A stretch of 64,000 nt of DNA. It comes from Candidatus Sumerlaeaceae bacterium. GTDB taxonomy: Bacteria; Sumerlaeota; Sumerlaeia; Sumerlaeales; Sumerlaeaceae. A program made the position numbers and the translations under genes. The notes under the pieces were generated by a model that worked only from the letters and a program-made list of their open reading frames with translations, did no database searches and was not told where the DNA came from. The DNA is taken from assembly GCA_051003195.1 (NCBI GenBank), contig JBPCLP010000034.1:3850-67849 (forward strand). The letters run 5' to 3'. Positions 7,079 through 41,011 of the stretch are shown here, in pieces (within the stretch, counting starts at the first letter, position 1; each line of letters begins with the position of its first letter).

Positions 7079-7603
7079 TCACGGTTTCCGCTCAATTCGC
7101 AAGGGTTTATCGAACCAGGTAAATTGGGCCGGGACGAGAACGTGTTTATTTGCATCGGAAATACTCAGCGTTGCGGGCGGGGCGCCGGGCAGCTGGTTGA
7201 TAAATGGCGCTGAAAGGAAAACAGTCGCTGGCGCGGCACTTAAGTCGAATTGGAGATCGAATTTAACCTCGGCGCCGCTCGTGACGCTGACATGGAGCGG
7301 GCGTGCAACGATCGTTCGGCCCTCCGCTGTCATTGTTATTTTCGCGGTTGCGAGAAGCCGAAGCGTCTCGGAACTCTGGCCCCACTCCGCAGGACTGACC
7401 ACGCTATCGTCGTTGGGATCCACATACTGGTGAAGCAATCCGACACCCACACGCAGGTCCAGCATTGCCGAGCTGGTACTGAGTGTGATGGTTCCGATGA
7501 CAGAGGTTGGTCCATGGCAGTAGCCGGACCGCGCAAGCAGCAGCAGTGTAACGTAAAAGGTCAATCTACACAAGTGCGACATAATAGCCTCCGAAACCTG
7601 CAT
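7079..7603 (-). CDS. Secreted protein with predicted N-terminal His and EF-hand-like loop
   Basis: Signal-like LCRLTFYVTLLLLARSGYC then HG; DPNDDSVVSPAE loop; TGATG overlap with upstream stop at 7603. Confidence 0.65.
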   Translation of the reverse strand: MQVSEAIMSHLCRLTFYVTLLLLARSGYCHGPTSVIGTITLSTSSAMLDLRVGVGLLHQYVDPNDDSVVSPAEWGQSSETLRLLATAKITMTAEGRTIVARPLHVSVTSGAEVKFDLQFDLSAAPATVFLSAPFINQLPGAPPATLSISDANKHVLVPAQFTWFDKPLRIERKP

Positions 7604-8115
7604 CAGTGAACGCTTCCCGCTTTGCGATCAACGTCATCGCAGCCGCGAAAAGGCATCCAGCAGCTTTTGCGTAGTATAGAAAGCGGGAACCGATCCCTGA
7701 AGCCGGTTGCGACGCGGATTACGCCAAAATAAACTTCATAGTATAGTCGCGCCCAAAACCCCGCGAACCCCGTCCGGCAACGCGCCCGCAAGCAAAGCAA
7801 TTCCCCTCTTGCAGCCGGTGGCAAAAGCTCCCGGCTCCGCAGCCACTTGAGAAAGCTGAGCGCGTCCTGTGCTGCTGCCGGCACCGAGGGGTGCTCGCCG
7901 AAGTATCGGGTCACCAGGTGCGCAAATCGATCCCCCATCACGGTGAGCGTGGCGGGCAGCATTCGCTCAAGGCAGCGCCGCCGTTTATTGCGCAGTGACT
8001 GGCTGGTGCGCACGAGCATAGGCACCGAAGCGCCGGCAGGTGCCTCTCCACCGCACATCAGCGCCTGCACCATTTGCGCCTGCTGCTTTGAAATTTGTTC
8101 ACGGAAGGACGGCAT
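7603..8115 (-). CDS. Putative MNIO partner protein (helical, DUF692-associated)
   Basis: MPSFREQISKQQAQMVQALMCGGEAPAG...SQSLRNKRRR resembles the small proteins that follow DUF692 in TIGR04222 loci; overlaps the DUF692 stop. Start ATG 8115, not the 8400 ORF-track start. Confidence 0.6.
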   Translation of the reverse strand: MPSFREQISKQQAQMVQALMCGGEAPAGASVPMLVRTSQSLRNKRRRCLERMLPATLTVMGDRFAHLVTRYFGEHPSVPAAAQDALSFLKWLRSRELLPPAARGELLCLRARCRTGFAGFWARLYYEVYFGVIRVATGFRDRFPLSILRKSCWMPFRGCDDVDRKAGSVH

Positions 8116-8941
8116 GCACCCGGTTCCAGCTCGACGCAATTTGATCCATCTCTGCATTCCACTCATTGTGCGTCGGGTATTGATCGTCGCGCTCGAGCAG
8201 GACACCTCCAGGCGCACACATTCCACACAACTCATCCAGCAGCTCGAAAACCGGAGCTGCAACGCCATGCGCGTGGGAGTCGACATATGTGCCATCAGCC
8301 TGCACATAACCCCCGCCGACGTGAACATACGCGACTCGCTCCAGCGGCAGCTCCGCGAGAAAGGTTCGCGCATCCATGCGCAGATTCTGCGCGTTCGCAT
8401 ACACGTTGGCGATGTCGAGCAGCAGCATCGCGCCCGTTTCGTGCAGCAATTCGGTTACAAACTGGGCCTCACTCATTTGCGCGTCCGGCCACTCGAAAAG
8501 CGCGGAGATGTTCTCCAATGCAAAAGGCACCGGCAGAAAGGCCTGTGCCGCGCGGACGTTCTCGATCAGCACACCAAGCGAATCGCGGGTGCGTGCAACG
8601 GGCAGCAAGTGACCGGCTTCGACCCCGCCGGCGCGCACAAATGCGATGTGCTCGCTGACCAGCGGTGACTTGAATTTCTCAGCCAGAAGAGCGAGATGCT
8701 CCAGTCGCCTTTCATCGAGTGTGTCCGCGCCACCCAATGACAGCGATATGCCATGCGGCACAACGTGCACCCCATCCTCGTGCAACTGCCTGAGCGCGGG
8801 CGGAATTTCATTACTGAAATTTTCAGCAGTGATCTCGACGAAGTTTATATCCTCGCGCAGTTCGATTGCACGCGCCAGTTCAGGGCGCCAGCCGGCACCG
8901 AGACCCAGTCGCGGTAGTTGTACAGCAGTTCCGCTAATCAC
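8099..8941 (-). CDS. DUF692 family multinuclear non-heme iron oxidative enzyme (MNIO)
   Basis: GLGAGWRPE, FVEITAEN, HGISLSLGG, SEHIAF, ENIS, LLLDIANVYAN, HVGGG, DSHAH, LLERD; GTG at 8941 overlaps the upstream TAG. Confidence 0.92.
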   Translation of the reverse strand: MISGTAVQLPRLGLGAGWRPELARAIELREDINFVEITAENFSNEIPPALRQLHEDGVHVVPHGISLSLGGADTLDERRLEHLALLAEKFKSPLVSEHIAFVRAGGVEAGHLLPVARTRDSLGVLIENVRAAQAFLPVPFALENISALFEWPDAQMSEAQFVTELLHETGAMLLLDIANVYANAQNLRMDARTFLAELPLERVAYVHVGGGYVQADGTYVDSHAHGVAAPVFELLDELCGMCAPGGVLLERDDQYPTHNEWNAEMDQIASSWNRVHAVLP

Positions 8942-9878
8942 CGCCGCCTCCCCCGCCACAACCACCACAGCCGCCTCCACCGCCACCACTGTCGCTACTG
9001 CTACTTCCCCCGCTTCCGCAACTGCCGCTGGAATCACCGCCCCCATAGCTGGAAGAACCGCCGCCGTCTCCCGAACGGTTACGTTTTACCCAATCGTTCA
9101 AGTCAGGGTACATCGCTGGAATTGCCGCGACGCCAAACAATGCGACACCGAGTGCGAGGTCGTTGCCACTCAGGCTGCTGCCACCGCTCTTCACCACGGC
9201 CTTCAATGACTCGCTCTTTTTTCGCAGCTTCGACAAAGTAGTGTCGGCACGCGACGTGCGGAAAAACTGCCCGGCAAGGCAAAGCAGCGCAATCAGCACC
9301 GTCGCAATCACAAATGCGATCAGGAAACCTACCGGCTTGTCCCGCGAAATCCCGACCCAGATTTTGATCGCGCCCACCGCCGCAACCACGAGGTAGAGGC
9401 TCATCATCAGGATTCGAATGCTCCAGATCGAGTTCTTCGACAGCAGCATGCCCATGCGCAGCAGCTTCTCGTGCATTTTATCAAAGGCTGGCGCGCACGC
9501 GCCAAATAGATCGCCCAGGCGGCCAACTTTCTGTGTATCCACCTGCCGGACAATTTCCTGTTCAAGCGGGTGCTCGACGTCGCGACGCCTCGACCCCTCG
9601 CCGTATACCACGGACACCGCATCGCCCATGATATGAATAACACCTTTTTGCAGCAAACTGGTGAGGGCGGCCTGGTACGCGCGTGGCGGGCCGCCCTGCA
9701 GATAAGCGACGTCGTAAGGATCCAGCCGCCCGGCCGCCAACTGGTCGTAGTCGGATGGCCCGCGCATGAAGTAACGCATGATCAGCCCCACGATCATTGC
9801 GCCACCAAACATCACTCCATACAGCACAAGAAACTGCGGCCCGCGAAGATCAAAAAATGCCGGCAGATCAATTAGCAT
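8934..9878 (-). CDS. TIGR04222 domain membrane protein with Gly/Ser/Cys-rich C-terminal tail
   Basis: FFDLRGPQFLVLYG, LDPYDVAYLQGGPPRA, SRDKPVGFL, RTSRAD; tail SGSCGSGGSSSSDSGGGGGGCGGCGGGGGGD. Confidence 0.88.
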   Translation of the reverse strand: MLIDLPAFFDLRGPQFLVLYGVMFGGAMIVGLIMRYFMRGPSDYDQLAAGRLDPYDVAYLQGGPPRAYQAALTSLLQKGVIHIMGDAVSVVYGEGSRRRDVEHPLEQEIVRQVDTQKVGRLGDLFGACAPAFDKMHEKLLRMGMLLSKNSIWSIRILMMSLYLVVAAVGAIKIWVGISRDKPVGFLIAFVIATVLIALLCLAGQFFRTSRADTTLSKLRKKSESLKAVVKSGGSSLSGNDLALGVALFGVAAIPAMYPDLNDWVKRNRSGDGGGSSSYGGGDSSGSCGSGGSSSSDSGGGGGGCGGCGGGGGGD

Positions 9879-10924: not shown

Positions 10925-11173
10925 TCAGTAGGTGCGTGGCACGTCAGCTGTCGCGTACGTCCACAGAATCCGCGTGCCCGAGGATGTTATATGCTCGACC
11001 GTCAGCACCTTACGCTCCGGATCAAGCAGATCGCTTTCAAGCCGTGCAAGCGTCTTCGAGCCGGTCGTCATGCGAACGTTCCCAGAGGTTGATAAGGAAC
11101 TTTGCCCATAGACGGGAATGCTAGTCCCAAGGGCGATCACCATCGCGCCGAGACAACTCACCTTCTCGATCAT
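10925..11173 (-). CDS. Small secreted hypothetical protein (82 aa)
   Basis: MIEKVSCLGAMVIALGTSIPVYGQ signal-like; ATGA overlap with the stop of the upstream fusion gene. Confidence 0.5.
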   Translation of the reverse strand: MIEKVSCLGAMVIALGTSIPVYGQSSLSTSGNVRMTTGSKTLARLESDLLDPERKVLTVEHITSSGTRILWTYATADVPRTY

Positions 11174-14100
11174 GTGTGCCCACATGCTGCGTTTACTTTC
11201 AGCAGGGCGGCTCCGTAAGTATAACCTCCACCAAAGGCAGTGAGTCCCAGCAGATCGTCCGTGTGCAGTTCGGCCGAGTTCACGAGGTCGCGCAGGCATA
11301 GCGGAATCGTGGAGGAAGAAGTATTGCCAAGCATCCGGATATTACTGAAGACCTTTTCCGGCGCGACGCCGAGATCCACGCCAAGATCATTAAGGATTCG
11401 CTGATTTGCCTGATGCGCTACCACATAGCGCAGATCCGTCGGCAGGATTCCATGCGCGCGGCAGACTTCGCGCAACGATTCGCTTAACGCTGGTATGCTT
11501 TCCTGCCGCACGTGCCGTCCCTCGAGCTGGATGTACTCGCCCGTACCAATGGGCGGAACGGTCAGCGCGTTTTCCTGGTCGCCTTTCGCATGCACGCTCG
11601 GCCGCAACACTTCAAATGGAGCGGACTGTGCAAACGATTGACCGCCGACAATACAAGCGGTCGCGGCATCTCCGAAACCGATACACGTGGCAGCATTCGT
11701 CGGGTCCAGCAATGACGACAGAGTTTCGGCTGTCACCACGAGTGCGCGGCTTTGCGGGCTGGCTTTGATCAATCCATGTGCGATCTGTAACGCGTAAAGG
11801 AAACCAGTGCAGGTAGCGAGCACGTCAAAAGCGGGCGCGCGGCACGCCGGCAGTCGATGATTCAACTCCGCCAGGATGCTGCATGCGATGGATGGACACA
11901 CCTGACTGACGGAACTCGTTGCACAGACAATGAGATCCAGGTGCTGGAAGGCCGAAGGATCCGCATCATAACAGGCATCCACGGCTTTCATCGCCAGCGT
12001 AAATGCTGTCTCGCCCTTTGCCGCGCGGCACCGGCTTACGATGCCAATCTTGCGCAGAATATCTTCTTCGGTAAGTTCCGGAAAACGCGCAGCGAGGTCA
12101 GCATTGGTCGTGGTTTGCGAGCCCTGCGCAGTATAAACTCGGGAAAGGAATACGGCGGTGCTACGGCGCGGATCGATTATCTCCGGATTTTGCATAGAGG
12201 GAATTTCGCGGCGCACGATATCTTGGGGTAACACACGACGCTTAACGACCGGTAGTGGCCGGTTCGGGATGTGCATCTGGCCAAGGCCAGACGTGCGCGG
12301 CTCGGGCGTGCGGATGCTGATCAACGGCGTTCCGATCCGTACCATGTCGCCCGCGCTCACGAGTATCTTTTCTACGCAACCACTCACGGGCGCGTCCAGT
12401 TCTCCCGCCGCCTTGTCGGCTTCCACTTCTGCAATGGTATCGCCAACCTTGATCTCTTTGCCGACCTCCACGAACCATTGAAGGATGGTAAGCTGCTCAT
12501 CAGACGGGCTGGTGCCAAACGCCTCCACGACATACAGGTGCGGGTCAGTCTCAACTGCGTGGGCCGCCGCGGGCTCGACATCGAGGTCGAGCAGTTCGGC
12601 GGCGGCTTCCACGATCGCCGCCGCGCTTGGCAAAACCTCGAGCTGGTTGCCGAAATTGCACGGTATGTGCGTATCCGCGCGCGTCACGCGCCGCATGTGC
12701 ACCTGGCGGGAAGCCTTCTCGGCGATCGTTGCGCACACCTCTGCGCCAAATCCGACCGACCGATTGTCTTCGTGCACGACAATCAAATTCCCGGTCCGCT
12801 CGACGGAGGAGATCACGGTGGCTGCGTCCCAGGGCGAGATGCACCGCAGATCGATGACCTCGGCACTGACGCCCACTGCATGCAGATGCTGCGCTGCGGC
12901 CGTGCAGAGTGGCACCGTTCCTCCCCAACCGAGGATGGTGACCTCCGTGCCGCGGCGCATCACGCGGGCGCTGCCCAGCGGGACGATCAGGTGTTCGGGT
13001 AATTCGCGCGTCGCCAGTGAGCGGTCGTTCAGGCAACTTTTCGGATAGAGGAAAATCGTCGGACGCCGTGACGCGAACGCCGCGTTCAGCAGACCTGCCG
13101 CATCTTCGGCGTTTGATGGCATGATCACATCCAGTCCGGGGATGTGGGCTACTACCGATTCCAGCGTTTGCGCGTGAAAGGGACCCAGGCCGGCCTTGTA
13201 GCCGCCGCAAACCGCCATCACGATAACAGGGGCCTGCCACCCGCCATCCGTGCGCCAGTATATACTGGCCAGTTCGGCGGCAATCTGGTTGAATGCGAGC
13301 GGAATAAAATCCGCAAATTGCAGAAACGCGACCGGGCGCTTACCGGCAAGTGCGCGGCCAATGGATACGCCAATGATCGTGGATTCGGAAAGCGGCGAGT
13401 TCTCCACCTGCTCGGGAAATGCAGTACCCAGGCCGCGCGTGAGTCCGAAAACGTCTCCCTTCGGATCATCGATGTCCTGGCCATATAGGATGACGTCCTG
13501 ATTCGCGGCGAGTTGCGCCCGTAATGTCCGACGCATGGCTTCCAGCATCGTCAGGGGGCCATCCACCGGAGGCGCAGGTTCTGCCAAAGCGGGGGCTGCT
13601 ATACGTGGCAGCGGGGGTTTCGCGTCCATGCATGCAGTCGGCTCCGCCGCACGCTTCGCCCGCTCGGCGGCCGCATTGACCTCTTCGCGCGCGGTCGACG
13701 TGATTTCATCCAGCTCCTGTTGCGTCACGCCGAGCTGCAGCAAATCAGATGCAAGCACGGCAAGCGGATCGCCGGTACCCGCTGCGCTTGCAATTTCCTC
13801 AGCGCTGCGATAGACAGCCTGGTCGTCCGCGTTGGTGTGATCGTCCAGGCGTTCGGTTCGCAACACCGCGATGACCGGTGCGCGGTTCTCCCGCGCGCGC
13901 TGCACCATGCTGCCAAAGACCGCATAGCACGACTGCACACTCGAGCCGTCGAGGTAGTGTATCGGAATGCCCATGAATTCGTCGGCGAGGCCAGTCGGCA
14001 GTGAGTAAAACGTTTTGCCGGCCGTGCGTGTGCTGATGGCGAAGTAATTATCTTCGACCAGCCACAGCACCGGCAGATGTGACCGCACCGATTCCGCAAT

Positions 14101-14580
14101 AGCTTCCAGCACTTCGCCTTCCTGAGTTGTTCCGTCGCCAACGCAGCACACTACCACCGGCTGCCCGTTGCGCTCCTTTACGGCGGACGCAATGCCCGCT
14201 GCCTGAAGCGCGTTATTTCCCACCGGTCCCACGACGCTGAGCACATTCAGCGAAGGCGCACTCATGTGTGCGCTCATCTGGCGCCCGCGCGAGTGCGAAT
14301 CGTTTTTGCAAAAGAGCGCGAGAAAAAAGTCTTCCGCAGCGATTCCGCGCGCCAGCATCAATGCCTTGTCACGGTAGTGGCAATGCAGCCAATCCTGAGT
14401 GCCGAGATGCGGCGCCAGCGCGGCCGTTGCCCCATGACCAAAACCCGCCACATGAAAGAACGCTTCGCCGCGGTTGGTGAACTGCCGCTCGAGTTCGTCG
14501 ATACGACGTGCCGCCACCAGCGTATGGTATAGCGGCAACAGGGCCCGCGTGGTCGCGGTTGACAGGTCGACTGAACTCAT
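11170..14580 (-). CDS. Fusion: 2-oxoacid dehydrogenase E1alpha + E1beta + lipoyl domain + FabH-like 3-oxoacyl-ACP synthase III
   Basis: HCHYRD, GDGTTQEG...VEDN (TPP motif), HTNADD; NSPLSESTIIG, EVIDLRCISPWD; VEADKA lipoyl Lys; ATCTGF, HQAN, GNTSSS (Cys-His-Asn triad). Confidence 0.92.
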   Translation of the reverse strand: MSSVDLSTATTRALLPLYHTLVAARRIDELERQFTNRGEAFFHVAGFGHGATAALAPHLGTQDWLHCHYRDKALMLARGIAAEDFFLALFCKNDSHSRGRQMSAHMSAPSLNVLSVVGPVGNNALQAAGIASAVKERNGQPVVVCCVGDGTTQEGEVLEAIAESVRSHLPVLWLVEDNYFAISTRTAGKTFYSLPTGLADEFMGIPIHYLDGSSVQSCYAVFGSMVQRARENRAPVIAVLRTERLDDHTNADDQAVYRSAEEIASAAGTGDPLAVLASDLLQLGVTQQELDEITSTAREEVNAAAERAKRAAEPTACMDAKPPLPRIAAPALAEPAPPVDGPLTMLEAMRRTLRAQLAANQDVILYGQDIDDPKGDVFGLTRGLGTAFPEQVENSPLSESTIIGVSIGRALAGKRPVAFLQFADFIPLAFNQIAAELASIYWRTDGGWQAPVIVMAVCGGYKAGLGPFHAQTLESVVAHIPGLDVIMPSNAEDAAGLLNAAFASRRPTIFLYPKSCLNDRSLATRELPEHLIVPLGSARVMRRGTEVTILGWGGTVPLCTAAAQHLHAVGVSAEVIDLRCISPWDAATVISSVERTGNLIVVHEDNRSVGFGAEVCATIAEKASRQVHMRRVTRADTHIPCNFGNQLEVLPSAAAIVEAAAELLDLDVEPAAAHAVETDPHLYVVEAFGTSPSDEQLTILQWFVEVGKEIKVGDTIAEVEADKAAGELDAPVSGCVEKILVSAGDMVRIGTPLISIRTPEPRTSGLGQMHIPNRPLPVVKRRVLPQDIVRREIPSMQNPEIIDPRRSTAVFLSRVYTAQGSQTTTNADLAARFPELTEEDILRKIGIVSRCRAAKGETAFTLAMKAVDACYDADPSAFQHLDLIVCATSSVSQVCPSIACSILAELNHRLPACRAPAFDVLATCTGFLYALQIAHGLIKASPQSRALVVTAETLSSLLDPTNAATCIGFGDAATACIVGGQSFAQSAPFEVLRPSVHAKGDQENALTVPPIGTGEYIQLEGRHVRQESIPALSESLREVCRAHGILPTDLRYVVAHQANQRILNDLGVDLGVAPEKVFSNIRMLGNTSSSTIPLCLRDLVNSAELHTDDLLGLTAFGGGYTYGAALLKVNAACGHT

Positions 14581-17516: not shown

Positions 17517-19658
17517 ATGGACACTTCACGTAATACTGACACTACAGACTACGAGATTCTCGTAGGCACACCAAATGACGGTGCGGGGACGCCGGAATCT
17601 TCCAGTGCGTCTGCGCGATCCGAAGAGTCGCTCGCGCTACTGCCCGAAAGCACGGTTGGCTGCATCCAGGTAGTACGTCTCATTGGCTGCGGCAAAGTTA
17701 GCGAGTCCTGGTTCGGCGTCGATGCAAAGAACCAGCGCGAAGTGGTCGTTAAGGTACTGCGCAAGCCATGGTCATCCGATTCGACTGTGCTCTCATACTT
17801 CGAAAGTCAGCTTAACGCCATTCGATCACTGGATCATCCGAACCTTGCCAACGTGCTCGATGTCGGTCAGGACGATGGTATGCTTTTCTGGGTCACGGAA
17901 TGGGTAAAAGGCGGTTCAGTATGGCCGAAGATTCGCCGCAAAGGCCCCATGGAAATCCCGGCTGCGTTCAACATCGTCGATCAGGCTGCGGCAGGACTAG
18001 CCAGTGGTGCAGTGGCGGGGCTGGTTCACGGCGGACTTAAGCCCGAGAACATCCTGATGGAACGCTCCGGCGCGGTGAAGGTGTCGGATCTTGGAGTAGA
18101 ATTCGCCGCGCGCCAGCTGGTGAGTGGTACACCTGCCGCATCCACGCTTTGGCTTGCGGAGTTCATGGCTCCGGAAGTGCGGAGCGGCGGCATCCCGGAC
18201 ATCCGGAGCGACATCTATTCGCTGGGTGCCATCCTTCTCTACCTGGTCGCAGGTGTTGTACCGCACGATGGACTCCTGGATGCGACAAGTCCGCGGATCA
18301 CACCGGCACTGCGTCAGCTGCTGATTAAAATGACGGCTACCGGTCCGGATGACCGGCTACAGGATTACGGTGAACTGCGCGGCTGTCTCTCGGATGTCGA
18401 ATCGGCTATTGTTAACAGTGCGGCGACACCGGGCGATTTGATTTCGGCAACAGCGGCTCCAAAGAACGAGACGACCGGTGTGCACTCTGGGGATACACAG
18501 GAACTGTTTGAAACGCAAGAGACGCTATTCGACTCGGAGCCCGGTGAGCGGGCTGTCCCAGCGGCGGCCACTGCTACACGGCAGGATGCGGATCAGACGA
18601 CACCGGAACGAGAATTAACTGAAGCCGACCTTTTGCGAGCCTTTGCAAACGAGGAGGACCTGGTCTACAACGCGCCGGAACCGGCGCCCACTCCGATCGA
18701 TTTAGCAACTGGCGACCCTTCGCACAAACTAGTTTCGCAGACATGGGCGACACCGGCACGTCCAGCTAAGTCTCGAAAGCTGGCGGTTAGTGCGGTCGCA
18801 GTGCTCGCGGTCGCAGCAGCCGGCGCGGCCGCATGGTTCCTGACTCAAGGCAAGCCGGAGCCAAAGAAGGTCGTCGAAACCAAGGCGGTTGCACCTCGGG
18901 CGACAACTCCTCTTTCCCAACCCACCGTAACTGCGCAGGCAACACCTCTGCCGTCATCAGGTTCCGTTGTCACGCAGCCCGCTCCGCGAACGGTTTCAAC
19001 ACTGCCTGATCTTACTGCTGCGACGGCGACTCCGCCGCCCATTATCGATCCACCCGCCATTATTGCGCCGCCGGGAGTGGACCCCGTAGCGCTTGCTCAG
19101 ATCGCCGCGACACCCGCAAGTCCCGGGGTTGCAGTAAATTTTTTGCCGCACACGGCACCATCCTTTTCACCGGGAGCAGTGGCTGCAGCCGCCCGCACAG
19201 CTCCGGCACCATCCAATGATTCCATCATTGTCGACAATGCTGTTTCCGGCGCACTGGAACTTGATCCGCCATCGGGATGGCAGGCGTCACCGGAAACACG
19301 CGCATCGTATGCCGGGAGTTCGCTGGTTGCCATTACCGGCGGCGCCTCGCAGAAAGCTACGTTTACAGCTGATGTTCCGAAAGCCGGACGCTACCAGTTA
19401 TACATGTGGTGGGTTGCGCGTTCGTCGGATGTCAGGTCGGCAACCGTCCCGGTTACGATACATACTGCCACCGGACCGATCAACATCACGGTGGACCAGG
19501 TTAACAGTGACAGCGACTTTAATCTGATTGGTACTTATAACCTCAAGGCAGGCGTGCACCAACCGATCGTTTCTGTGAGCACAGATGGAATCAAAAATCC
19601 CAGCGGCAATGTGCATGTTTCCGTCGATGCACTTAAGCTAATTCCCAAAAACGATTAG
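17517..19658 (+). CDS. Transmembrane Ser/Thr kinase-like protein (probable pseudokinase) with extracytoplasmic golvesin/Xly-like carbohydrate-binding domain
   Basis: VVVKVL, LDHPNL, VHGGLKPENIL, VSDLG, FMAPE, DIYSLG; TM AVSAVAVLAVAAAGAAAWFL; C-terminal IIVDN...AGRYQLYMWW...DALKL. Confidence 0.85.
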   Translation: MDTSRNTDTTDYEILVGTPNDGAGTPESSSASARSEESLALLPESTVGCIQVVRLIGCGKVSESWFGVDAKNQREVVVKVLRKPWSSDSTVLSYFESQLNAIRSLDHPNLANVLDVGQDDGMLFWVTEWVKGGSVWPKIRRKGPMEIPAAFNIVDQAAAGLASGAVAGLVHGGLKPENILMERSGAVKVSDLGVEFAARQLVSGTPAASTLWLAEFMAPEVRSGGIPDIRSDIYSLGAILLYLVAGVVPHDGLLDATSPRITPALRQLLIKMTATGPDDRLQDYGELRGCLSDVESAIVNSAATPGDLISATAAPKNETTGVHSGDTQELFETQETLFDSEPGERAVPAAATATRQDADQTTPERELTEADLLRAFANEEDLVYNAPEPAPTPIDLATGDPSHKLVSQTWATPARPAKSRKLAVSAVAVLAVAAAGAAAWFLTQGKPEPKKVVETKAVAPRATTPLSQPTVTAQATPLPSSGSVVTQPAPRTVSTLPDLTAATATPPPIIDPPAIIAPPGVDPVALAQIAATPASPGVAVNFLPHTAPSFSPGAVAAAARTAPAPSNDSIIVDNAVSGALELDPPSGWQASPETRASYAGSSLVAITGGASQKATFTADVPKAGRYQLYMWWVARSSDVRSATVPVTIHTATGPINITVDQVNSDSDFNLIGTYNLKAGVHQPIVSVSTDGIKNPSGNVHVSVDALKLIPKND

Positions 19659-31401: not shown

Positions 31402-31767
31402 TGACGGCCTCCCCTGAAATTGATATTATGGCTGATAGTCCTATATTCCGTGCGTCCTTCTCAAGCTAAATCGCTCGCGAGTATCTGAAGGCGTGCCTGA
31501 ACACTTGCGGGAGGACCGCCCAGTAATCCGACGGAAACGTTTTGGAGCAGCGCTGCTCTTTAGTCCAGGCGTACTTCTGCCGCTTCATTTTTCTTGTGTT
31601 CAGCAATTCGCGATGCCTTTGAATGTCTTCTTCATTAGACTTCGCAGCTTGGGAATGACGCATGAGCTTCGACGTCGGCTGCGACGCCGAGAGCAAATGC
31701 GAACTCTTGCCCGCTCGAACAAACTCCCACATCCTCACTCAGAGCCATTTATCCAGGGGTGTGTTCC

Positions 31768-34700
31768 ATGCGTTTTATTTCTCTATCCGTTTCTTTGCTT
31801 TCCGTAGTTTTGGTTGCAGCACTCTGCCCAAGCCCGGCACTCGCTGCCGGCAATGCTCCACAGCCGGCAATTTGCACTCGCGGTTGCTGGGGAGCTAGTG
31901 CGCCCGGCTCGATCTCGTACATGTCGACGCTCAACCGCGCCATCGTGCACCACACGGCAGGCAACGAGTTCAACACGACCGGCTATGAAGCATCAAAGGC
32001 CAACGTAAGAGCCATCCAGAGCCTGCACAAGAATACGAACGGCTGGTCGGATATCGGCTACCATTTCCTCGTCGACAAGTTCGGGTACATTTTCGAGGGC
32101 CGCTACAACTCGATGGGTAGTCTGCCCCGGGGCGCACACGACGGCTTTAATACTAACAGCTTCGGCTTTAATGTCATGGGCTACTTTCACCCGACGGTGA
32201 ACAACGTCCCTACCGCCGCAATGATGAATTCGCTGTATGATATCATCGCGTGGCGCATGCCTTCGGCCTGGCGCCCCTATGGCTCGCCCGGTGGCACTTA
32301 CGGCGACCTTGGGAATACGGTTGGTTATGTCGATAGTCACCGTCGCGTCAAAGCAACGGCCTGCCCAGGCGATAACGTTCACAATCCATACATAGGCAAT
32401 AACGTGAACGCCGGGACCATCCGCGCTGAAATCAACAACCGTATCATCGGCGGCACGCCATGGGATGCGACCTTCAATAATCAGTCATACGTCGGCGCAA
32501 TGTATCCCGGCCAGGCAGCAACCTTCTGGGTCGAATATAAAAACGTGGGCACGAACACATGGACGCCGGGCGGCGGAAACCCGACACGCCTGGGTACAAG
32601 CAGCCCGCGAGATCGCTCAAGTGCGTTCTTCACTTCCGGAAACTGGCCCAACGCCAGCAGGCCTACTGATGTGGATGCATCCACAGGGCCTAACGGCATC
32701 GGGCGATTCAGTTTTGTCGCAACCGCCCCACAGACGCCGGGCTATTATGTAGAAAACTGGGAACTCGTCACAGAAGGCGTCTCCTGGTTCGAGGGCGCCG
32801 GAGACGGATCATGGTTCGGTATCGAAGTCGCCAAACAGGGCGACAACATCCAATGGGAGTGCGAAGATTACAGTCGCGGCATCCACGCCGCGAATAACGT
32901 GGATTATTTCGATACCACCGCTGGCAACACGGGCGGTGCCTATCGTTCCCAGGACGTCGATATACGTGCGTGCGTCGAAGGCGGTTACCAGGTCGGCTGG
33001 ACAGAACCAGGCGAATCGCTGAGATATTATTTCTACGGAGGCGGCAACAGCTACCGCTTTGCTGTACGTTATTCGAATGGATCGGCCGCCAATGCATCCG
33101 TACGCCTTCGCGTCGATGGCGTTGACGTGGGCACCGTCATTCTGCCGCCAACTGCAAACTACGATACGATGGCGACGGCCTACACGCATGTCAGCATCGG
33201 TTCCGCCGCACTGCATGAACTGAAGATCGACGTCATGTCCGGCAACCCGGACCTCAACAATTTCCGCCTCGATAAGGTGTGGAACCCACCGCACAATTTC
33301 AGCTTTAATGCGCAGGGTTATGATGTGTGGGGCAGAAACGGTCTTTCGGCTATTAGTTGGACGGACTGCTGCGGCTGGCCCGGCATCATGTATACGGATC
33401 AAACCGGCAATGACGCGTTTGTGTACAGCGGCGCCACGAATTTCACCGGCGGTTCTTATGATCTCATTCACGTCCGTGTCTTCCCGCAGGGAGGCACCAG
33501 CGCCAGCCACAATATGCAGATATTCTGGCTGAACTCAGAGGATTGGGCGTGGAACTCTGCGAAGTCCTCGGATATCGTTTACTTCACCGCGCAGGATGCC
33601 TGGGCGGATGTGTACCTCTATGTCGGTCCAAACTCCGGATGGAACGGGAAAACAATCACCCAGCTCCGCCTGGACTTTGATAACACAAGTGTGGGTACGC
33701 GTTGGCATGTGGACTCCCTCAGTATCGAGCAACAACCCACCGCACCAGCAGCGCCTACCGGCCTCGCTGCAACGGCTGCATCTTCCTCGCAGATTAATCT
33801 CGCGTGGACGGATGCATCGAACAATGAGGAGAATTTTGTCGTGGCACGCAGCGCAACAGCCGGCGGGCCTTACACGGATCTCGCCACGCTGGGCGCAAAT
33901 GTAACCAGTTACTCCGACACCGGGCTTTCCCCGCTGACGGCCTACTATTATGTTGTGCGCGCAACCAACGCGGCCGGCTCATCGGCAAATTCAAGTGAAG
34001 CCTCAGCAACAACGTTGTCCAACATCCCGACTGCGCCATCCGGACTCGCGGCAGCTGCGACCACTCCTTATGACATTAATCTCACCTGGACTGACAATTC
34101 CGCGAATGAGGCGAACTTCGTGGTTGGTCGCAGTTCCGTGGCAGGTGGCCCCTATGTGGACATCGTGACCCTTGGGGCGAATGTCACATCTTATACCAAC
34201 AGTGGACTGAGCCCCAGCACCACGTATTACTATGTCGTCCGGGCGACGAATTCCGGAGGCTCTTCTGCGAATTCCAACGAGGCGAGTGCAACGACACTTC
34301 AGCAACCGCCCAATGCACCAAGTGCACTGGGGGCGACTGCAATCAGCTCGACACAGATTAACCTGGCGTGGACGGATAACTCCACAAACGAGGCAAACTT
34401 TGTGGTCGCACGTGGCTCCGCAAGCGGTGGCCCGTACACGGACATCGCCACGCTCGGCGCTAATGTAACCTCATACAGCAACACCGGCCTGACCGCCGCC
34501 ACGACGTATTACTATGTCGTGCGGGCGACCAATGCCGGTGGAGCGTCGGCAAACTCCAACCAGGCCTCTGCAACAACGTTACCTAATCCGCCCGCAGCCC
34601 CCAGTGGACTGGTCGCAACCGCGGCCTCGAATGGTACGCAGGTCGACCTCGGTTGGGCGGATAACTCGGGCAATGAAGCTAACTTCATCGTCGCACGCTC

Positions 34701-36411
34701 TGCCACCTCCGGCGGACCCTACTCCGACATCGCTACGTTGGCCGCCAATACTACCAGCTATTCAAACACGGGTCTGGCGGAAAACACAACCTACTATTAC
34801 GTGGTGCGGGCCACGAACTCGGGAGGATCCTCCGGGAACTCCAACCAGGCTACCGCAACCACTCCGGTCCCTGATCGCATCATCGACAATCCATCTGCCT
34901 CGCTGACCGGCACGTTCTCGACAGGAACGAGTGCGTTGGACAAATTCGGTGCCGACTACAACTACAGAAGCCAGGGTACTGGCGCAAACTACGCCACGTT
35001 CACGCCAACGCTGGCCGTCGCCGGACGCTATAGCGTTTACGAGTGGCACCCACAGGGAACCAACCGCACAATCGGTGCTCCGCATGTCATCACATTCGAT
35101 GGCGCGTCGGATACCATCGCGGTGAATCAGCAGGTAGGTGGCGGTGCATGGAATCTGCTCGGGACCTTCAACTTTGCGGCAGGTTCGTCGGGGAACGTGA
35201 GAATCACCGATGCGTTCCCGGATGCCGGCCAGCTGGTTCTGGTCGACGCCATCAAGTTTGTGTACGTTGGCGGCGCCGTGGCACCGGCAGCGCCGACCGG
35301 ACTTGCGGCAACGGCTGCGTCTCCATCGCAGATAAACCTCTCGTGGAACAACGTGCTGAACGAAAGCGGGTACGTCGTTGCACGCAGCACGACATCCGGT
35401 GGCCCTTACACGGATATCGCAACGCTCGGGGCAAACGTTACAAGCTACTCGAACACCGGCCTCGCCCAGAACACCTCCTACTACTACGTGGTACGCGCAA
35501 CCAACAGTGCAGGAGCATCAGCCAATTCGGCGCAGGCCGCCGCGACAACACCGGTTGCACCACCCGCCGCTCCAAGCGGGCTGAGCGCCACCGCACTTAC
35601 ACAGACAAAGGTCAGTCTAAGCTGGACGGATAACGCGACGAACGAGGCGAATTATGTCGTCAGTCGCGCAACCACGGCCGGTGGACCTTACACCGACATC
35701 GCCACGCTTGCAGCAAACAGTGTGAGTTACACCGACACGGGATTGTCGGCCAGCACGGCCTACTACTACGTCGTTCGGGCAACAAATGCCGGCGGTGGAT
35801 CAGGCAACTCCAACGAAGCTGCAGTTACTACGCCCGTACCCGCAACCATTACGGTCGACGCGGTCGGTGCGGACGATGGCTGGGCGCTCGAGAGCGCTGC
35901 CGGGTCAAACGTCGGCGGTTCTAACAACGGTATCAACACCACGTTCGCCGTAGGCGACATGACCGGCAACCGTGCATACCGCGGCATCGTTTCATTCGAT
36001 ACGTCCGGGCTTCCGGATGACGCGAGCGTCACAAAGGCCACGCTGCGGCTTACCCAGTACTCGCTGAACGGCACAGACCCATGGGCCGTCTTAGGAACCC
36101 AGGCAGTCGATATTAAGACACCCAACTTCGGCGCGGTAGCCGGTATGGAAAATAGCGACTGGGAAGCAGGGGCAGGTGCGGCCAGTGTTGGTACTGTGCC
36201 AAAGCCCGCCGCCAATGGCTCCAGCGTCGATGCGATCCTCAGCTCCGGTGCAAATGGCCACGTGAGCGTCACGGCGAAGACGCAGATGAAGCTCCGCTTT
36301 ACCACTAACACCAACAGCGACGCGCTTAATAACTACGTGAACTGGTACTCCGGCGACTTTACCACCGACACCACCAAGCGTCCCAAGCTGATCATCGAAT
36401 ACGTGCAATAG
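31768..36411 (+). CDS. Secreted multidomain N-acetylmuramoyl-L-alanine amidase (Amidase_2/PGRP) with Ig-like, CBM6/35-like, 6x FN3, golvesin-like and C-terminal DNRLRE-like domains
   Basis: IVHHTAG, GWSDIGYHFLVD, GAHDGFN, HRRVKATACPG; six APxgL...YYYVVRATN repeats; C-terminal RPKLIIEY. Confidence 0.88.
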   Translation: MRFISLSVSLLSVVLVAALCPSPALAAGNAPQPAICTRGCWGASAPGSISYMSTLNRAIVHHTAGNEFNTTGYEASKANVRAIQSLHKNTNGWSDIGYHFLVDKFGYIFEGRYNSMGSLPRGAHDGFNTNSFGFNVMGYFHPTVNNVPTAAMMNSLYDIIAWRMPSAWRPYGSPGGTYGDLGNTVGYVDSHRRVKATACPGDNVHNPYIGNNVNAGTIRAEINNRIIGGTPWDATFNNQSYVGAMYPGQAATFWVEYKNVGTNTWTPGGGNPTRLGTSSPRDRSSAFFTSGNWPNASRPTDVDASTGPNGIGRFSFVATAPQTPGYYVENWELVTEGVSWFEGAGDGSWFGIEVAKQGDNIQWECEDYSRGIHAANNVDYFDTTAGNTGGAYRSQDVDIRACVEGGYQVGWTEPGESLRYYFYGGGNSYRFAVRYSNGSAANASVRLRVDGVDVGTVILPPTANYDTMATAYTHVSIGSAALHELKIDVMSGNPDLNNFRLDKVWNPPHNFSFNAQGYDVWGRNGLSAISWTDCCGWPGIMYTDQTGNDAFVYSGATNFTGGSYDLIHVRVFPQGGTSASHNMQIFWLNSEDWAWNSAKSSDIVYFTAQDAWADVYLYVGPNSGWNGKTITQLRLDFDNTSVGTRWHVDSLSIEQQPTAPAAPTGLAATAASSSQINLAWTDASNNEENFVVARSATAGGPYTDLATLGANVTSYSDTGLSPLTAYYYVVRATNAAGSSANSSEASATTLSNIPTAPSGLAAAATTPYDINLTWTDNSANEANFVVGRSSVAGGPYVDIVTLGANVTSYTNSGLSPSTTYYYVVRATNSGGSSANSNEASATTLQQPPNAPSALGATAISSTQINLAWTDNSTNEANFVVARGSASGGPYTDIATLGANVTSYSNTGLTAATTYYYVVRATNAGGASANSNQASATTLPNPPAAPSGLVATAASNGTQVDLGWADNSGNEANFIVARSATSGGPYSDIATLAANTTSYSNTGLAENTTYYYVVRATNSGGSSGNSNQATATTPVPDRIIDNPSASLTGTFSTGTSALDKFGADYNYRSQGTGANYATFTPTLAVAGRYSVYEWHPQGTNRTIGAPHVITFDGASDTIAVNQQVGGGAWNLLGTFNFAAGSSGNVRITDAFPDAGQLVLVDAIKFVYVGGAVAPAAPTGLAATAASPSQINLSWNNVLNESGYVVARSTTSGGPYTDIATLGANVTSYSNTGLAQNTSYYYVVRATNSAGASANSAQAAATTPVAPPAAPSGLSATALTQTKVSLSWTDNATNEANYVVSRATTAGGPYTDIATLAANSVSYTDTGLSASTAYYYVVRATNAGGGSGNSNEAAVTTPVPATITVDAVGADDGWALESAAGSNVGGSNNGINTTFAVGDMTGNRAYRGIVSFDTSGLPDDASVTKATLRLTQYSLNGTDPWAVLGTQAVDIKTPNFGAVAGMENSDWEAGAGAASVGTVPKPAANGSSVDAILSSGANGHVSVTAKTQMKLRFTTNTNSDALNNYVNWYSGDFTTDTTKRPKLIIEYVQ

Positions 36412-36502: not shown

Positions 36503-38029
36503 TTACTCCGATTGGGTCAACAGCTCCTGCACCACAATGGGATTACGAGCAGCGGCTAATTCGTCCATGCGGCCAACTGGTGTTGTGTGCGGAGCGGATG
36601 TGATATCTTCGGCGCTGGTTTCCGCGTTGCGGGCGATATCGAGCATCGCTCCCGCGAACAGCTCCAGCATCTCCTTGTTTTCGGTTTCGGTCGGTTCAAT
36701 CATCACCGCCTCCGGAACGATCAGCGGGAAATACGTCGTCGGCGGATGAAATCCGTAGTCGATCAGCTTCTTGGCGATATCGACGGCTTTAACACCCTGC
36801 TTCTTTTGTCGCGTCGCATCGATCACGAATTCGTGCATGCACCGCTTGCCGTGCGGGATGTCGTACGCGCCGGCCAGCAGGGACAAAAGGTAGTTTGCAT
36901 TTAGAACCGCGTGATCGCTGATGTCGCGACAGCCCTGTTCACCCAGTTGTTGCAGGTACACGTAAGCACGGACCACATGGTTTACGTTGCCGTAAAAACT
37001 GCGCACTTTGCCGATGGATTTAGCGGTGTCACCAGAGAACCGGAAGGTGCCATCTGCCCGTTTCTCGATATGGGGTGTCGGCAGAAAGGGCGCGAGAAAA
37101 TCCCGTACCACAATCGGGCCCGCTCCCGGTCCCCCGCCGCCGTGCGGAATCGAGAACGTCTTGTGCAGATTGATATGCATCATATCGCCGCCGAAATCGC
37201 CGGGCCGCACCCGTCCCACAATCGCGTTAAAATTCGCGCCGTCGATATAGACGAGTCCCCCCGCTTCATGGACAAGCTCGGCAGCGGCATCAATGCGGTC
37301 TTCGAACAGGCCCAGCGTGTTCGGATTCGTCACCATCAGGCACGCCGTCTTCGGGCCGAGGGTTCGCTTCAGTTCGTCCAGCTCAATACGCCCGCGGCTG
37401 TCCGACTTGACGGTGACGGTCTCCAGGCCCGCACGATATGCGGAGGCCGGGTTGGTGCCATGCGCCGTGTCGGGAATGATCACCTGGTTCCGTTCGGGCT
37501 GTCCCTTGTCTGCGAAGTACGCCTTCGCAACCAGAAGCGCTGTAAATTCGCCATGCGCGCCGGCCGCTGGTTGCAGGCTCACACCCGGGAGGTTCGTCAG
37601 TTTTCCAAGTGCCTTATGGACTTCATAGTACGCTTCCAGCAGTCCCTGCATCGTATCCTGCGGCTGCATCGGGTGCAGGTGCGTAAAGCCGCTCAGCCCC
37701 GCGCCGAACTCGTTGATCTTGGGATTGTACTTCATCGTGCACGACCCCAGCGGATAGAACGTTGTCTCCACGCCCATCGTCCGCGAAGACAGATGCGTGA
37801 AATGCCGCATAACCGTCAGCTCGCTGACTTCAGGCAGTGCCGGTGGAGTTTTGCGACGCACGTTCGCAGGAATCGCTTTCTCGACGATCGCGTTCGTCTC
37901 ATCATGTTCGATCGGTAGCGAAAATCCGGTACGGCCCGACACGCCCTGTTCAAAGATCGTCTGGTTGTCCAGCGCGTGCTGAACCGAGAACGTATCGTCC
38001 TCTTCGATAATCCGAATTCGCCGGCTCAC
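36503..38029 (-). CDS. gcvPB: Glycine dehydrogenase (decarboxylating) subunit 2
   Basis: YPLGSCTMKYNP, QPAAGAHGE, AHGTNPASA, MHINLHKTFSIPHGGGGPGAG, MIEPTETE. Confidence 0.96.
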   Translation of the reverse strand: MSRRIRIIEEDDTFSVQHALDNQTIFEQGVSGRTGFSLPIEHDETNAIVEKAIPANVRRKTPPALPEVSELTVMRHFTHLSSRTMGVETTFYPLGSCTMKYNPKINEFGAGLSGFTHLHPMQPQDTMQGLLEAYYEVHKALGKLTNLPGVSLQPAAGAHGEFTALLVAKAYFADKGQPERNQVIIPDTAHGTNPASAYRAGLETVTVKSDSRGRIELDELKRTLGPKTACLMVTNPNTLGLFEDRIDAAAELVHEAGGLVYIDGANFNAIVGRVRPGDFGGDMMHINLHKTFSIPHGGGGPGAGPIVVRDFLAPFLPTPHIEKRADGTFRFSGDTAKSIGKVRSFYGNVNHVVRAYVYLQQLGEQGCRDISDHAVLNANYLLSLLAGAYDIPHGKRCMHEFVIDATRQKKQGVKAVDIAKKLIDYGFHPPTTYFPLIVPEAVMIEPTETENKEMLELFAGAMLDIARNAETSAEDITSAPHTTPVGRMDELAAARNPIVVQELLTQSE

Positions 38030-39381
38030 AAGTATTGCTCCAGCGCAGTGGCGAAAGCGTCGATTTCATCGTCGGTGGGCTTCTCTGTTACCGCCACGAG
38101 TAGATGATTCGCAAATTGCTTCCCGAGCGTCTCGCCGAGCGGTATGCCCGCATAAAAATCTTTCGCCAGCATTGCATCCCGCACTTCATTTGCCGGGCGT
38201 TTGCACATCAGCGTCAGTTCCCTGAAGTTCGGGCCGGGAAACGCAATTGCCCCCGGCGCTTTTGCTTCGATCGCACTCCGCAGCCGCTCTAAACCGCGAA
38301 CACACGAGCGAGCGACGCGCCCCAATCCCTGCGGTCCCATGAGGCACATGTAGATCGTCGCACGCAACGCGTTATGCGCATGGTTGGTGCAGATGTTCGA
38401 CGTCGCCTTCTCGCGGCGGATGTGCTGCTCACGCGTTTGTAACGTCAGCACAAAACCTCGTCGGTTTTCGCGGTCACGCGCCACGCCCACCAATCGCCCC
38501 GGCACCTTGCGGATGAAATCCTTCTGGCACGTAAAGATCCCCAGCGATTCCCCCCCGGCAAACTGGTTCAGCCCAAGCGGTTGCCCTTCGCCAATCGCGA
38601 TGTCCGCACCATAGCTCCCAGGCGGTGCGAGCACACCCAGCGACAGCGGATCTGCAATCACGATGAGCAGCGCGCCGGCATGATGCGCGCGGTTTGCAAC
38701 CTCCTGCGCCTCCTCGATGCAGCCGAAGTAGTTGGGTTGCTGCATGATCACCGCGGCGGTATCCGGTCCGATCAGCTCGTCCAGCACCTCAAGCCCAATG
38801 CGCCCGTCCATCGTTCCGCACGGGACGATTTCCGCGTTGAAATTCGCGAGGTATGTCTTCGCCAGTGCACGGTATTCCGGATGCACCGTGTTCGGCATCA
38901 CGATCTTGTTCCGCTCCGGACGTATTCCAAGGGCCAGGAAGATCGCTTCTCCCAGCGCGGAGGCGCCATCGTACAGCGAGGCATTCGAAACCGGCATTTC
39001 ATAAAGCCGGCTTATCAAAGACTGGTATTCGAAGAATGCCTGCAGCAAACCCTGGCTGGCTTCCGGCTGGTAAGGCGTATACCCCGTCACATACTCCTGC
39101 CGGTTGGCCACGTGCATGATTGCAGTCGGGACAAAGTGGTCGTAAATTCCGCCACCAAGGAACGACACCACCTGTGTCGTAGGACGGTTCTTCGCTGCAA
39201 GCGCCGTCAGTTCCCGTTGCAGTTCCAGTTCGCTCAGCGGCGCCGGCAGTCCGTGGCTGCCTTTGAACTGCAGCTCCGCCGGCACCTGGTCGTCGAACAG
39301 CTCGTCGATTGACGATGCATCGCATGCCTTCAGCATCTCCCCAAGTTGTGCCGGGGTTGTCTGGATAAACGGGTTCGTCAA
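38026..39381 (-). CDS. gcvPA: Glycine dehydrogenase (decarboxylating) subunit 1
   Basis: FLGGGIYDH, YTPYQPEASQG, NASLYDGASA, TREQHIRREKATSNICTN; TTG 39381 with GGAGG RBS, overlapping the gcvH stop. Confidence 0.95.
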   Translation of the reverse strand: MTNPFIQTTPAQLGEMLKACDASSIDELFDDQVPAELQFKGSHGLPAPLSELELQRELTALAAKNRPTTQVVSFLGGGIYDHFVPTAIMHVANRQEYVTGYTPYQPEASQGLLQAFFEYQSLISRLYEMPVSNASLYDGASALGEAIFLALGIRPERNKIVMPNTVHPEYRALAKTYLANFNAEIVPCGTMDGRIGLEVLDELIGPDTAAVIMQQPNYFGCIEEAQEVANRAHHAGALLIVIADPLSLGVLAPPGSYGADIAIGEGQPLGLNQFAGGESLGIFTCQKDFIRKVPGRLVGVARDRENRRGFVLTLQTREQHIRREKATSNICTNHAHNALRATIYMCLMGPQGLGRVARSCVRGLERLRSAIEAKAPGAIAFPGPNFRELTLMCKRPANEVRDAMLAKDFYAGIPLGETLGKQFANHLLVAVTEKPTDDEIDAFATALEQYL

Positions 39382-40871: not shown

Positions 40872-41011
40872 CTGCCTGCCAGGAGAAAAGTGGGTCAAAT
40901 CCGTGGGCCATAATTAGGCACGAGTCTGGCCGCGCAAGCGCCAAGTTGTGAAATTCTTAAAAACAAAGTCCACCGTTGCAATACGGGTTGGATAATGAGG
41001 TTAGTTAGCTC

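Follow-up and report, generated by a model that had tools for sequence, protein, structure and literature searches.

A single gene on the reverse strand of a 64,000-nucleotide stretch of DNA from Candidatus Sumerlaeaceae bacterium (GenBank assembly GCA_051003195.1, contig JBPCLP010000034.1, positions 3,850 to 67,849 of the forward strand; the whole stretch is called the window below) encodes a protein in which the E1alpha and E1beta modules of a 2-oxoacid dehydrogenase, a lipoyl domain and a beta-ketoacyl-acyl carrier protein (ACP) synthase III (KAS III) domain are fused in this order. The fusion is a real, widespread and uncharacterised variant. As judged from its sequence, it most likely works like the pathway of branched-chain 2-oxoacid dehydrogenase (BCKDH) plus FabH collapsed into one protein. 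It would act as a self-contained, E2-less 2-oxoacid:malonyl-ACP oxidative-decarboxylating condensing enzyme, with transfer of the acyl group from the lipoyl arm to the FabH-type domain without coenzyme A (CoA). This reading is given a probability of about 0.58.

Gene and domain architecture

The gene and its Pfam domains are as follows (open reading frame (ORF) listing, Pfam and AlphaFold2 (AF2) model).

11170..14580, reverse strand: E1alpha-E1beta-lipoyl-KAS III gene, 1136 aa, ATG start
Residues 21-316: E1_dh (PF00676), E 1.6e-39
Residues 343-517: Transket_pyr (PF02779)
Residues 536-642: Transketolase_C (PF02780)
Residues 697-756: Biotin_lipoyl (PF00364), E 1e-16
Residues 918-981: ACP_syn_III
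Residues 1041-1128: ACP_syn_III_C

At E<=0.01, the protein had no Pfam match to the E2 catalytic core 2-oxoacid_dh (PF00198) or to E3_binding (PF02817), which is the domain for binding of peripheral subunits (PSBD). The order of the six domains and the motifs agree with a sequence-only reading of this DNA, which had described E1alpha, E1beta, lipoyl and FabH parts without an E2 core in one 1136-aa ORF. The thiamine pyrophosphate (TPP) motif, the lipoyl motif of 'VEADKA' type and the Cys/His/Asn triad named there were all found on direct reading of the sequence, and all catalytic residues of the E1, lipoyl and KAS III modules are present in the window protein. An AF2 model, built from a 120-member family alignment, had a mean predicted local distance difference test score (pLDDT) of 91.5 and a predicted template modelling score (pTM) of 0.72, with all four modules confident. 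The PDB was searched by structure (Foldseek) and by sequence; matches were obtained per domain only, and the whole architecture occurs in no solved structure.

A GGAG 9 nt upstream of the start codon is a plausible ribosome-binding site. A terminator-like hairpin (14651-14633) lies between the fusion gene and the upstream RDD-family gene, so that the fusion gene is probably transcribed alone; a promoter scan found nothing. None of the window ORFs scanned was a fab, E2 or lpd gene.

E1 half and lipoyl arm

The features of the E1 half, all on the reverse strand, are listed below.

13633..14520: E1alpha module, the half that binds TPP in 2-oxoacid dehydrogenase E1s of the heterotetramer type (residues 21-316, PF00676)
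14047..14139: TPP motif GDG-X27-N, G148 to N178, translation GDGTTQEGEVLEAIAESVRSHLPVLWLVEDN
13837..13839: H248, His of the E1alpha 'HSxSDD' loop (human BCKDH His291), aligned to 1um9_A and 1dtw_A
12655..13554: E1beta module, Transket_pyr plus Transketolase_C (Pfam; 1um9_B at 196.7 bits; Foldseek TM 0.95)
13384-13386: E399, TPP-activating Glu in 'PLSE', aligned to 1um9_B
13174-13176: H469, in 'H-A-Q' aligned to the 'HSQ' of 1um9_B

In the 120-member alignment, G148, G150 and N178 are invariant, and the motif residues G148-D149-G150 and N178 are all conserved to at least 90%; H248, E399 and H469 are likewise invariant. The equivalents of H248 and H469 serve the reductive acylation of lipoamide. 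Since the TPP-activating and reductive-acylation residues are both invariant, the E1 half appears built to load a lipoyl group and not merely to decarboxylate.

For substrate assignment, both modules were compared with solved E1 structures. E1alpha scored 132.7 bits with the Thermus BCKDH-type enzyme, 92 with human BCKDH, 72-74 with pyruvate dehydrogenases (PDH) and 69 with P. putida BCKDH; E1beta scored 196.7 bits with Thermus, 186 with Geobacillus PDH and 179 with P. putida BCKDH. The NCBIfam PDH and E1 models were all far under their cutoffs for the fusion protein, and specificity determinants for E1 sought in PMC2663715 yielded none that were usable. E1alpha is nearest to the BCKDH type and E1beta equidistant between the BCKDH and PDH types, which leaves the assignment by sequence likeness ambiguous. 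The 2-oxoacid is probably branched-chain or another short aliphatic one, with pyruvate still a candidate; the branched-chain substrate proposed in the sequence-only reading thus has E1alpha on its side and, with the ambiguous E1beta scores, is not established.

The lipoyl domain and its linkers were located as follows (reverse strand).

12310..12528: lipoyl domain, residues 685-757 (PF00364; beta-sandwich strands at 682-757 in the AF2 model)
12412-12414: codon of the lipoyl-lysine K723 in 'EADKA'; the motif reads AEVEADKAAGEL
12136..12309: flexible lipoyl-KAS III linker, residues 758-815 (pLDDT <50 at 786-805)
12250-12270: conserved linker patch, residues 771-777, consensus KPxTxExPGTP (family alignment)

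K723 is present in 120/120 and E720 in 119/120 family members. K723 is flanked by D and A, not by the Met-Lys-Met context of biotinyl domains, and is the predicted lipoylation site. The linkers measure 26-30 residues before the lipoyl domain and 51-79 residues between it and KAS III across the family. In the AF2 model, the only disordered stretches (pLDDT <50) are residues 674-676 and 786-805, which flank the lipoyl domain on both sides, as expected for a swinging arm. Within the otherwise variable lipoyl-KAS III linker, E772, G775 and P777 of the patch are at least 90% conserved, and a short strand (778-780) is predicted directly after it; the patch may be a docking element for the lipoyl arm. 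At the level of sequence, every feature that could be checked places the fusion in the E1 family and in the lipoyl-domain family.

KAS III domain and loss of the CoA-adenine clamp

For residue mapping of the condensing domain, an E. coli FabH reference verified as identical to PDB 1HN9_A was used. The features, on the reverse strand, are:

11194..12135: KAS III (FabH-type) condensing domain, residues 816-1129 (Pfam, NCBIfam and PDB matches)
11809-11811, 11413-11415, 11323-11325: catalytic triad C924, H1056, N1086
11398-11400: R1061, the ACP-docking Arg, equivalent of E. coli FabH R249
12061..12063: D840, where E. coli FabH has Trp32
11692..11694: A963, where E. coli FabH has Arg151

FabH structures in the PDB matched the domain down to E 1e-48 (Foldseek TM 0.90-0.92); the NCBIfam FabH model TIGR00747 scored 210 bits (cutoff 292). 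In E. coli numbering, the equivalents of C112, H244 and N274 are present in 120/120 members of the family alignment, that of N247 in 115/120 and that of R249 in 116/120, the window protein included, and the equivalents of S276 and F304-G305-G306 are conserved to at least 96%. The triad, the oxyanion-hole residues and the ACP-docking Arg are all kept.

Two other positions have changed throughout the family. Trp32 and Arg151 of E. coli FabH are taken, from FabH-CoA structures, to sandwich the adenine of CoA. Among the 120 members, position 32 is Asp in 104, Glu in 10 and Trp in none, and position 151 is Phe in 65, Pro in 33 and Arg in none (others include Leu, Ala and Tyr). As a control, all five solved canonical FabHs compared (Aquifex, Vibrio, Haemophilus, Thermus, E. 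coli) keep the 'SDEW' and 'D..DR' motifs. For a wider control, 1.84 billion representatives were searched by HMMER with the lipoyl-plus-KAS III part of the protein. Both W32 and R151 are kept in 50/73 stand-alone KAS III proteins versus 0/62 lipoyl-linked ones, of which 55 keep neither (Fisher p 1.8e-19, uncorrected for shared ancestry). In a crude neighbour-joining tree of KAS III domains, 55 of the 62 lipoyl-linked domains fell into one clade that has no member with W32 and R151. Monophyly of the lipoyl-linked domains is not claimed; the window protein lay outside the main clade under midpoint rooting.

The position of the primer gate Phe87 is occupied by Thr in 102/120 members and otherwise by Ser or Cys (Cys in the window protein). 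With so small a residue, the primer pocket may be larger or of another shape, and primers larger than acetyl are compatible with it. Judged by these residues, the domain is a KAS III in fold and catalytic core but lacks the clamp by which FabH binds acyl-CoA.

Together with its nearest relatives P0002 to P0004, the window protein (P0001) forms a subclade with an altered ACP-docking helix.

11365-11388, reverse strand: ACP-docking helix, residues 1065-1069, with changes A1065D and R1069D (family alignment)

The equivalent of A253 is Ala in 110/120 members, Asp in the window protein and Asp or Glu in the subclade; the equivalent of K257 is Arg or Lys in 113/120, Asp in the window protein and Asp, Glu, Leu or Ala in the subclade. 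The window protein deviates at 15 of 81 family-conserved columns in KAS III versus 3 of 97 in E1alpha. With Arg1061 and the triad intact, the window enzyme is predicted from these residues to be probably active.

Distribution, variants and gene neighbourhood

Among about 5.8 billion protein clusters, a search found more than 120 proteins of full length (1094-1164 aa) that share the six Pfam domains, at 47-76% identity; together with a search seeded by a distant member, more than 200 protein clusters of 1094-1214 aa have the six-domain architecture. The guess of the sequence-only reading that similar fusions might exist in databases is thereby borne out. Two cultured planctomycetes, Lignipirellula cremea and Rosistilla carotiformis, also carry fusion proteins. 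In databases, the proteins go under generic names that contradict each other ('2-oxoisovalerate dehydrogenase E1 component', 'thiamine pyrophosphate-dependent enzyme', 'beta-ketoacyl-ACP synthase 3', 'transketolase').

For genome context, one genome per species was scanned. At least 587 loci were confirmed, and the best 80 of these were analysed with 10-kb flanks. All of the 80 match the query from residue ~5 to ~1130. About 30 are from Planctomycetota (including Pirellulaceae) and about 38 from Spirochaetota; the others belong to Verrucomicrobiota, Lentisphaerales (Lentisphaerota), Kiritimatiellia, Nitrospirales, Sumerlaeota, Gamma- and Betaproteobacteria and one cyanobacterium. The architecture is thus present in at least eight phyla at about 50% identity. 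That two genes were joined by a sequencing error, an outcome that the sequence-only reading had allowed for, or that the gene is an inactive relic, can be dismissed, since more than 200 independent clusters share the architecture, the best 80 loci are all full length, the catalytic residues are invariant and the AF2 model is confident.

One metagenome-assembled genome (MAG) of Pirellulaceae, CAYWNA01, has two full-length copies (L001 and L010) on different contigs. Paralogy with different substrates is one possible explanation, contamination of the bin another.

Rearranged variants were also found. E1beta-lipoyl-KAS III proteins of 769-803 aa exist; one such gene, at locus L085, overlaps at its start with a separate gene for a 343-aa E1alpha. 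At another locus (L084:18-1621), a gene for a lipoyl-KAS III didomain protein (450 aa) has, 6 nt downstream, an 81-aa PP-binding gene, the product of which shows weak similarity to AcpP (E 8.5e-4); any E1 genes upstream are cut off by the end of this contig of only 1.7 kb. A third locus (L087) has collinear E1alpha-beta, lipoyl and KAS III parts, either real or from frameshifts. In the confidently split variants (L085, L084), the lipoyl domain is always on the KAS III polypeptide, and in none of the rearranged variants found was it paired with an E2 core. A 1942-aa protein (P0157; L083:10001-15829, GCA_029777335.1) has the E1alpha-beta, lipoyl and KAS III parts and carries ketoreductase (KR) and PP-binding (ACP) domains after KAS III, with ~260 C-terminal residues without a Pfam match. 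The extension is in keeping with a carrier-bound beta-keto thioester as product, for which it is weak evidence.

In seven spirochaete loci, a short-chain dehydrogenase/reductase (SDR) gene lies downstream on the same strand with a gap of 1-202 nt (1 nt in L007, L013 and L015; 90-202 nt in L003, L004, L008 and L021). Its best NCBIfam likeness is to mycolate reductase and FabG, far below cutoff, which is only suggestive of a dedicated 3-oxoacyl reductase.

A conserved operon partner was sought by clustering the ORFs of the 80 loci; none was conserved across phyla. Neighbours are lineage-specific (aconitase, SerRS, tRNA-synthetase-like genes, SDR, MsrB, sigma-54 regulators), and those of the closest relatives P0003 and P0004 are unrelated too. 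Within 10 kb of the 80 loci there was no stand-alone FabH, fab cluster, E2 or lpd gene, and two or three incidental ACP-like ORFs were seen in the flanks. No biosynthetic-cluster context was found in the window or at the 80 loci. The fusion behaves like a self-sufficient housekeeping gene, not like a member of a biosynthetic cluster.

Proposed reaction

In the proposed reaction, the fused E1alpha-beta with TPP would decarboxylate a 2-oxoacid (step 1), and the hydroxyalkyl-TPP would reductively acylate K723 on the protein's own swinging-arm domain (step 2). The S-acyl-dihydrolipoyl arm would then reach into the tunnel of KAS III, as the pantetheine arm of acyl-CoA otherwise does, and pass the acyl group to Cys924 by thioester exchange, so that KAS III would do the job of E2 and CoA would not be involved (step 3). 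Malonyl-ACP would dock at Arg1061, be decarboxylated with the help of His1056 and Asn1086 and condense with the acyl-Cys to give 3-oxoacyl-ACP (step 4), destined for type II fatty-acid synthesis or, in rare derivatives, for a polyketide synthase (PKS)-like line. The dihydrolipoyl arm would be re-oxidised by free Lpd and NAD+, as for the glycine-cleavage H-protein (step 5). One turnover per fatty acid would explain why there is no PSBD for recruitment of E3.

The protein has the catalytic residues for steps 1, 2 and 4. Inference from conserved residues and domain layout leads to the chemistry of steps 2 to 5; which 2-oxoacid is used and where the product goes are likewise inferred.

Weighing of the reading and its alternatives

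Direct transfer from the lipoyl arm to the FabH Cys, with FabH replacing E2, had been put forward in the sequence-only reading and is partly supported; every sequence-level test that was run agrees with its core idea. In its favour are the loss of the adenine clamp, the conservation of the condensing, ACP-docking and E1 reductive-acylation residues, and the retention of lipoyl and KAS III on one chain in the split variants; on the other side stand the charge-reversing changes on the ACP-docking helix of the window subclade, whose acceptor may differ from ordinary AcpP. Several further points weigh against the proposed reaction. The loss of W32 and R151 may have been a single ancestral event, so that the Fisher test overstates independence, and among 38 diverse full-length representatives W32 alone is kept in four and R151 alone in one. 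With 244.5 bits, the match to the NCBIfam FabH model PRK09352 narrowly misses the cutoff of 249. At the 80 loci, no ACP, fab, lpd or E2 gene is a conserved neighbour, and for the KR-ACP extension P0157 stayed the single example when the whole database was searched with it.

The alternative that survives best, itself unlikely, keeps the same chemistry and has the product, bound to a dedicated carrier protein, start a specialised metabolite (polyketide, alkyl-lipid or signalling molecule) instead of priming membrane fatty acids. It would account for the KR and ACP that P0157 carries, for the dedicated small PP-binding gene of L084 with its weakly AcpP-like product, for the altered docking helix of the window subclade and for the two copies in one MAG. 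The main family, however, sits in housekeeping surroundings that differ by lineage, with no biosynthetic cluster, and is highly conserved across phyla, as for a core function; its KAS III resembles genuine FabH most, rather than DarB, PqsD or other specialised enzymes of the KAS III type.

A further possibility, to which little credence is given, is that KAS III, as a non-homologous replacement of E2, serves as a transacylase only: the loaded lipoyl arm would give up its acyl group either to free CoA, which would make the protein a new kind of 2-oxoacid dehydrogenase that forms acyl-CoA, or, with no condensation, to holo-ACP. FabH is generally known to have an acyl-CoA:ACP transacylase side activity, several KAS III-like proteins are pure acyltransferases, AcoC-type proteins replace E2 by another fold, and no ACP gene is conserved beside the fusion. 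Against this, the lost clamp argues against CoA as acceptor; His244, Asn274, Asn247, Ser276, Phe304-Gly305 and Arg249 (E. coli numbering), which jointly serve the decarboxylation of malonyl-ACP and the condensation, are near-invariant across phyla at ~50% overall identity; and the KR of P0157 and the spirochaete SDRs imply a beta-keto product.

Conventional coupling, in which E1-lipoyl feeds a separate E2, the acyl-CoA is then used by the fused FabH and the fusion only co-localises or co-regulates the two, follows the textbook route of branched-chain priming from BCKDH to FabH. It is nevertheless improbable: there is no PSBD to attach an E2 core or E3, an E2 gene is absent within 10 kb in the best 80 loci, the acyl-CoA clamp is lost though kept by most stand-alone FabHs, and the split variants have their lipoyl domain on the KAS III chain rather than with an E2.

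Comparison with known systems

BCKDH followed by FabH is the classical route to iso and anteiso primers in Bacillus, Staphylococcus and Listeria. The BCKDH complex (E1alpha2beta2-E2-E3) with FabH shares with the fusion the E1 fold and catalytic residues, a lipoyl arm and a Cys-His-Asn condensing enzyme, and has the same net conversion (2-oxoacid + malonyl-ACP -> 3-oxoacyl-ACP). The fusion differs in being one chain without E2 core, PSBD and adenine clamp, and the acyl-CoA step is predicted to be skipped. It is not a member of the canonical E1-E2-E3 complexes, since it has neither an E2 core nor a PSBD; KAS III follows the lipoyl domain instead. With E. coli-type FabH (1HN9, 6X7R, 9KA6), the fusion has ~30% identity and a TM of 0.90 and shares C112, H244, N274, N247, R249, F157, G209, S276 and F304-G305-G306. 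It differs at W32 (Asp/Glu), R151 (Phe, Pro or other) and F87 (Thr/Cys/Ser) and is tethered to a lipoyl domain.

In QncN/QncL/QncM (naphthyridinomycin, quinocarcin) and SclQ1-4 (scleric acid), a lipoyl domain receives the acyl unit from a TPP-dependent E1/transketolase-like module and passes it to ACP without CoA. These are described, in PMC6335953, as glycolicacyl-ACP systems with CoA-independent lipoyl-to-ACP transfer. They keep an E2-type acyltransferase, use ketose phosphates, deliver a non-ribosomal peptide synthetase (NRPS) extender and sit in biosynthetic clusters, whereas in the fusion the predicted acyl acceptor is a condensing enzyme, the gene stands alone and a dedicated ACP occurs only in rare variants.

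Actinobacterial OdhA/KGD (Foldseek 8p5v, 2yid) is also a 2-oxoacid dehydrogenase rearranged by fusion (bioRxiv 10.1101/2020.07.24.212647). Unlike the protein described here, OdhA (an E1o-E2o fusion) keeps the E2 acyltransferase, has no lipoyl domain of its own and still makes acyl-CoA. The AcoC-type 'E2' of some acetoin dehydrogenases joins a lipoyl domain to an alpha/beta-hydrolase fold in place of the E2 core; the replacing fold is a hydrolase-type acyltransferase that forms acetyl-CoA, unlike the condensing enzyme of the fusion, and the AcoC model NF011457 (NCBIfam) matches only the lipoyl part of the fusion.

Oku and Kaneda are said to have proposed in 1988 a 2-oxoacid-primed, decarboxylase-dependent branched-chain fatty-acid synthesis in Bacillus subtilis. 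The proposal, largely superseded by acyl-CoA-specific FabH, likewise had 2-oxoacid priming without free acyl-CoA, but with a separate decarboxylase; the fusion would offer an explicit covalent route. An E1-lipoyl-KAS III fusion was found described nowhere in the open full-text literature, subscription-only papers being outside the scope of that search.

Other features of the window

The window contains dcw genes and many CarboxypepD_reg proteins, a gene content with an Acidobacteriota-like look. A glycine-cleavage (gcv) system, to which the sequence-only reading had pointed, is confirmed as a complete gcvT-gcvH-gcvP1-gcvP2 operon (36503-40898, reverse strand). The Rfam scan of the window gave no family at gathering score, glycine riboswitch included, and the tRNA scan found nothing. 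Other features are:

39771-40898, reverse strand: gcvT
39378-39770, reverse strand: gcvH
38026-39399, reverse strand: gcvP1
36503-38029, reverse strand: gcvP2
8099-9046, reverse strand: gene of the MbnB/TglH/ChrH family (DUF692; Pfam E 2.6e-77)
8934-9878, reverse strand: 314-aa membrane protein with a Gly/Ser/Cys-rich C-terminal tail ending in GGGGGGCGGCGGGGGGD, upstream of the DUF692 gene and overlapping it
7603-8400, reverse strand: 265-aa ORF without Pfam match, downstream of the DUF692 gene
56833-60468, reverse strand: 1211-aa ORF without any Pfam match
31759-36411, forward strand: 1550-aa secreted-looking protein with Amidase_2, CBM35, six fn3 repeats and Golvesin_C
17517-19658: Ser/Thr kinase ending in Golvesin_C

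The region 7603-9878 could be a modification locus for a peptide that is metal-binding or resembles ribosomally synthesised and post-translationally modified peptides (RiPPs).

Significance

The odds are about even that the fusion represents a widespread, undescribed mode of fatty-acid initiation, in which a 2-oxoacid is turned into 3-oxoacyl-ACP on one polypeptide with a lipoyl arm replacing CoA. If so, it would join acyl-CoA-dependent FabH, malonyl-ACP decarboxylase and FabB priming as a further way to start type II fatty-acid synthesis, and would be the first case of a thiolase-fold condensing enzyme replacing the E2 acyltransferase of a 2-oxoacid dehydrogenase. The old idea of CoA-independent 2-oxoacid priming would be revived, and the labels now in databases ('2-oxoisovalerate dehydrogenase E1 component', 'beta-ketoacyl-ACP synthase 3', 'transketolase') would need correcting. 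The protein would also be a compact one-gene part for the engineering of branched or unusual fatty-acid starters. For the organisms, it would account for the way in which many anaerobic or BCKDH-poor lineages could obtain primers straight from amino-acid-derived 2-oxoacids, and in Planctomycetota, Spirochaetota, the wider Planctomycetota-Verrucomicrobiota-Chlamydiota (PVC) group and others the supply of primers and the branched-chain content of the membrane would be insulated from the acyl-CoA pool.

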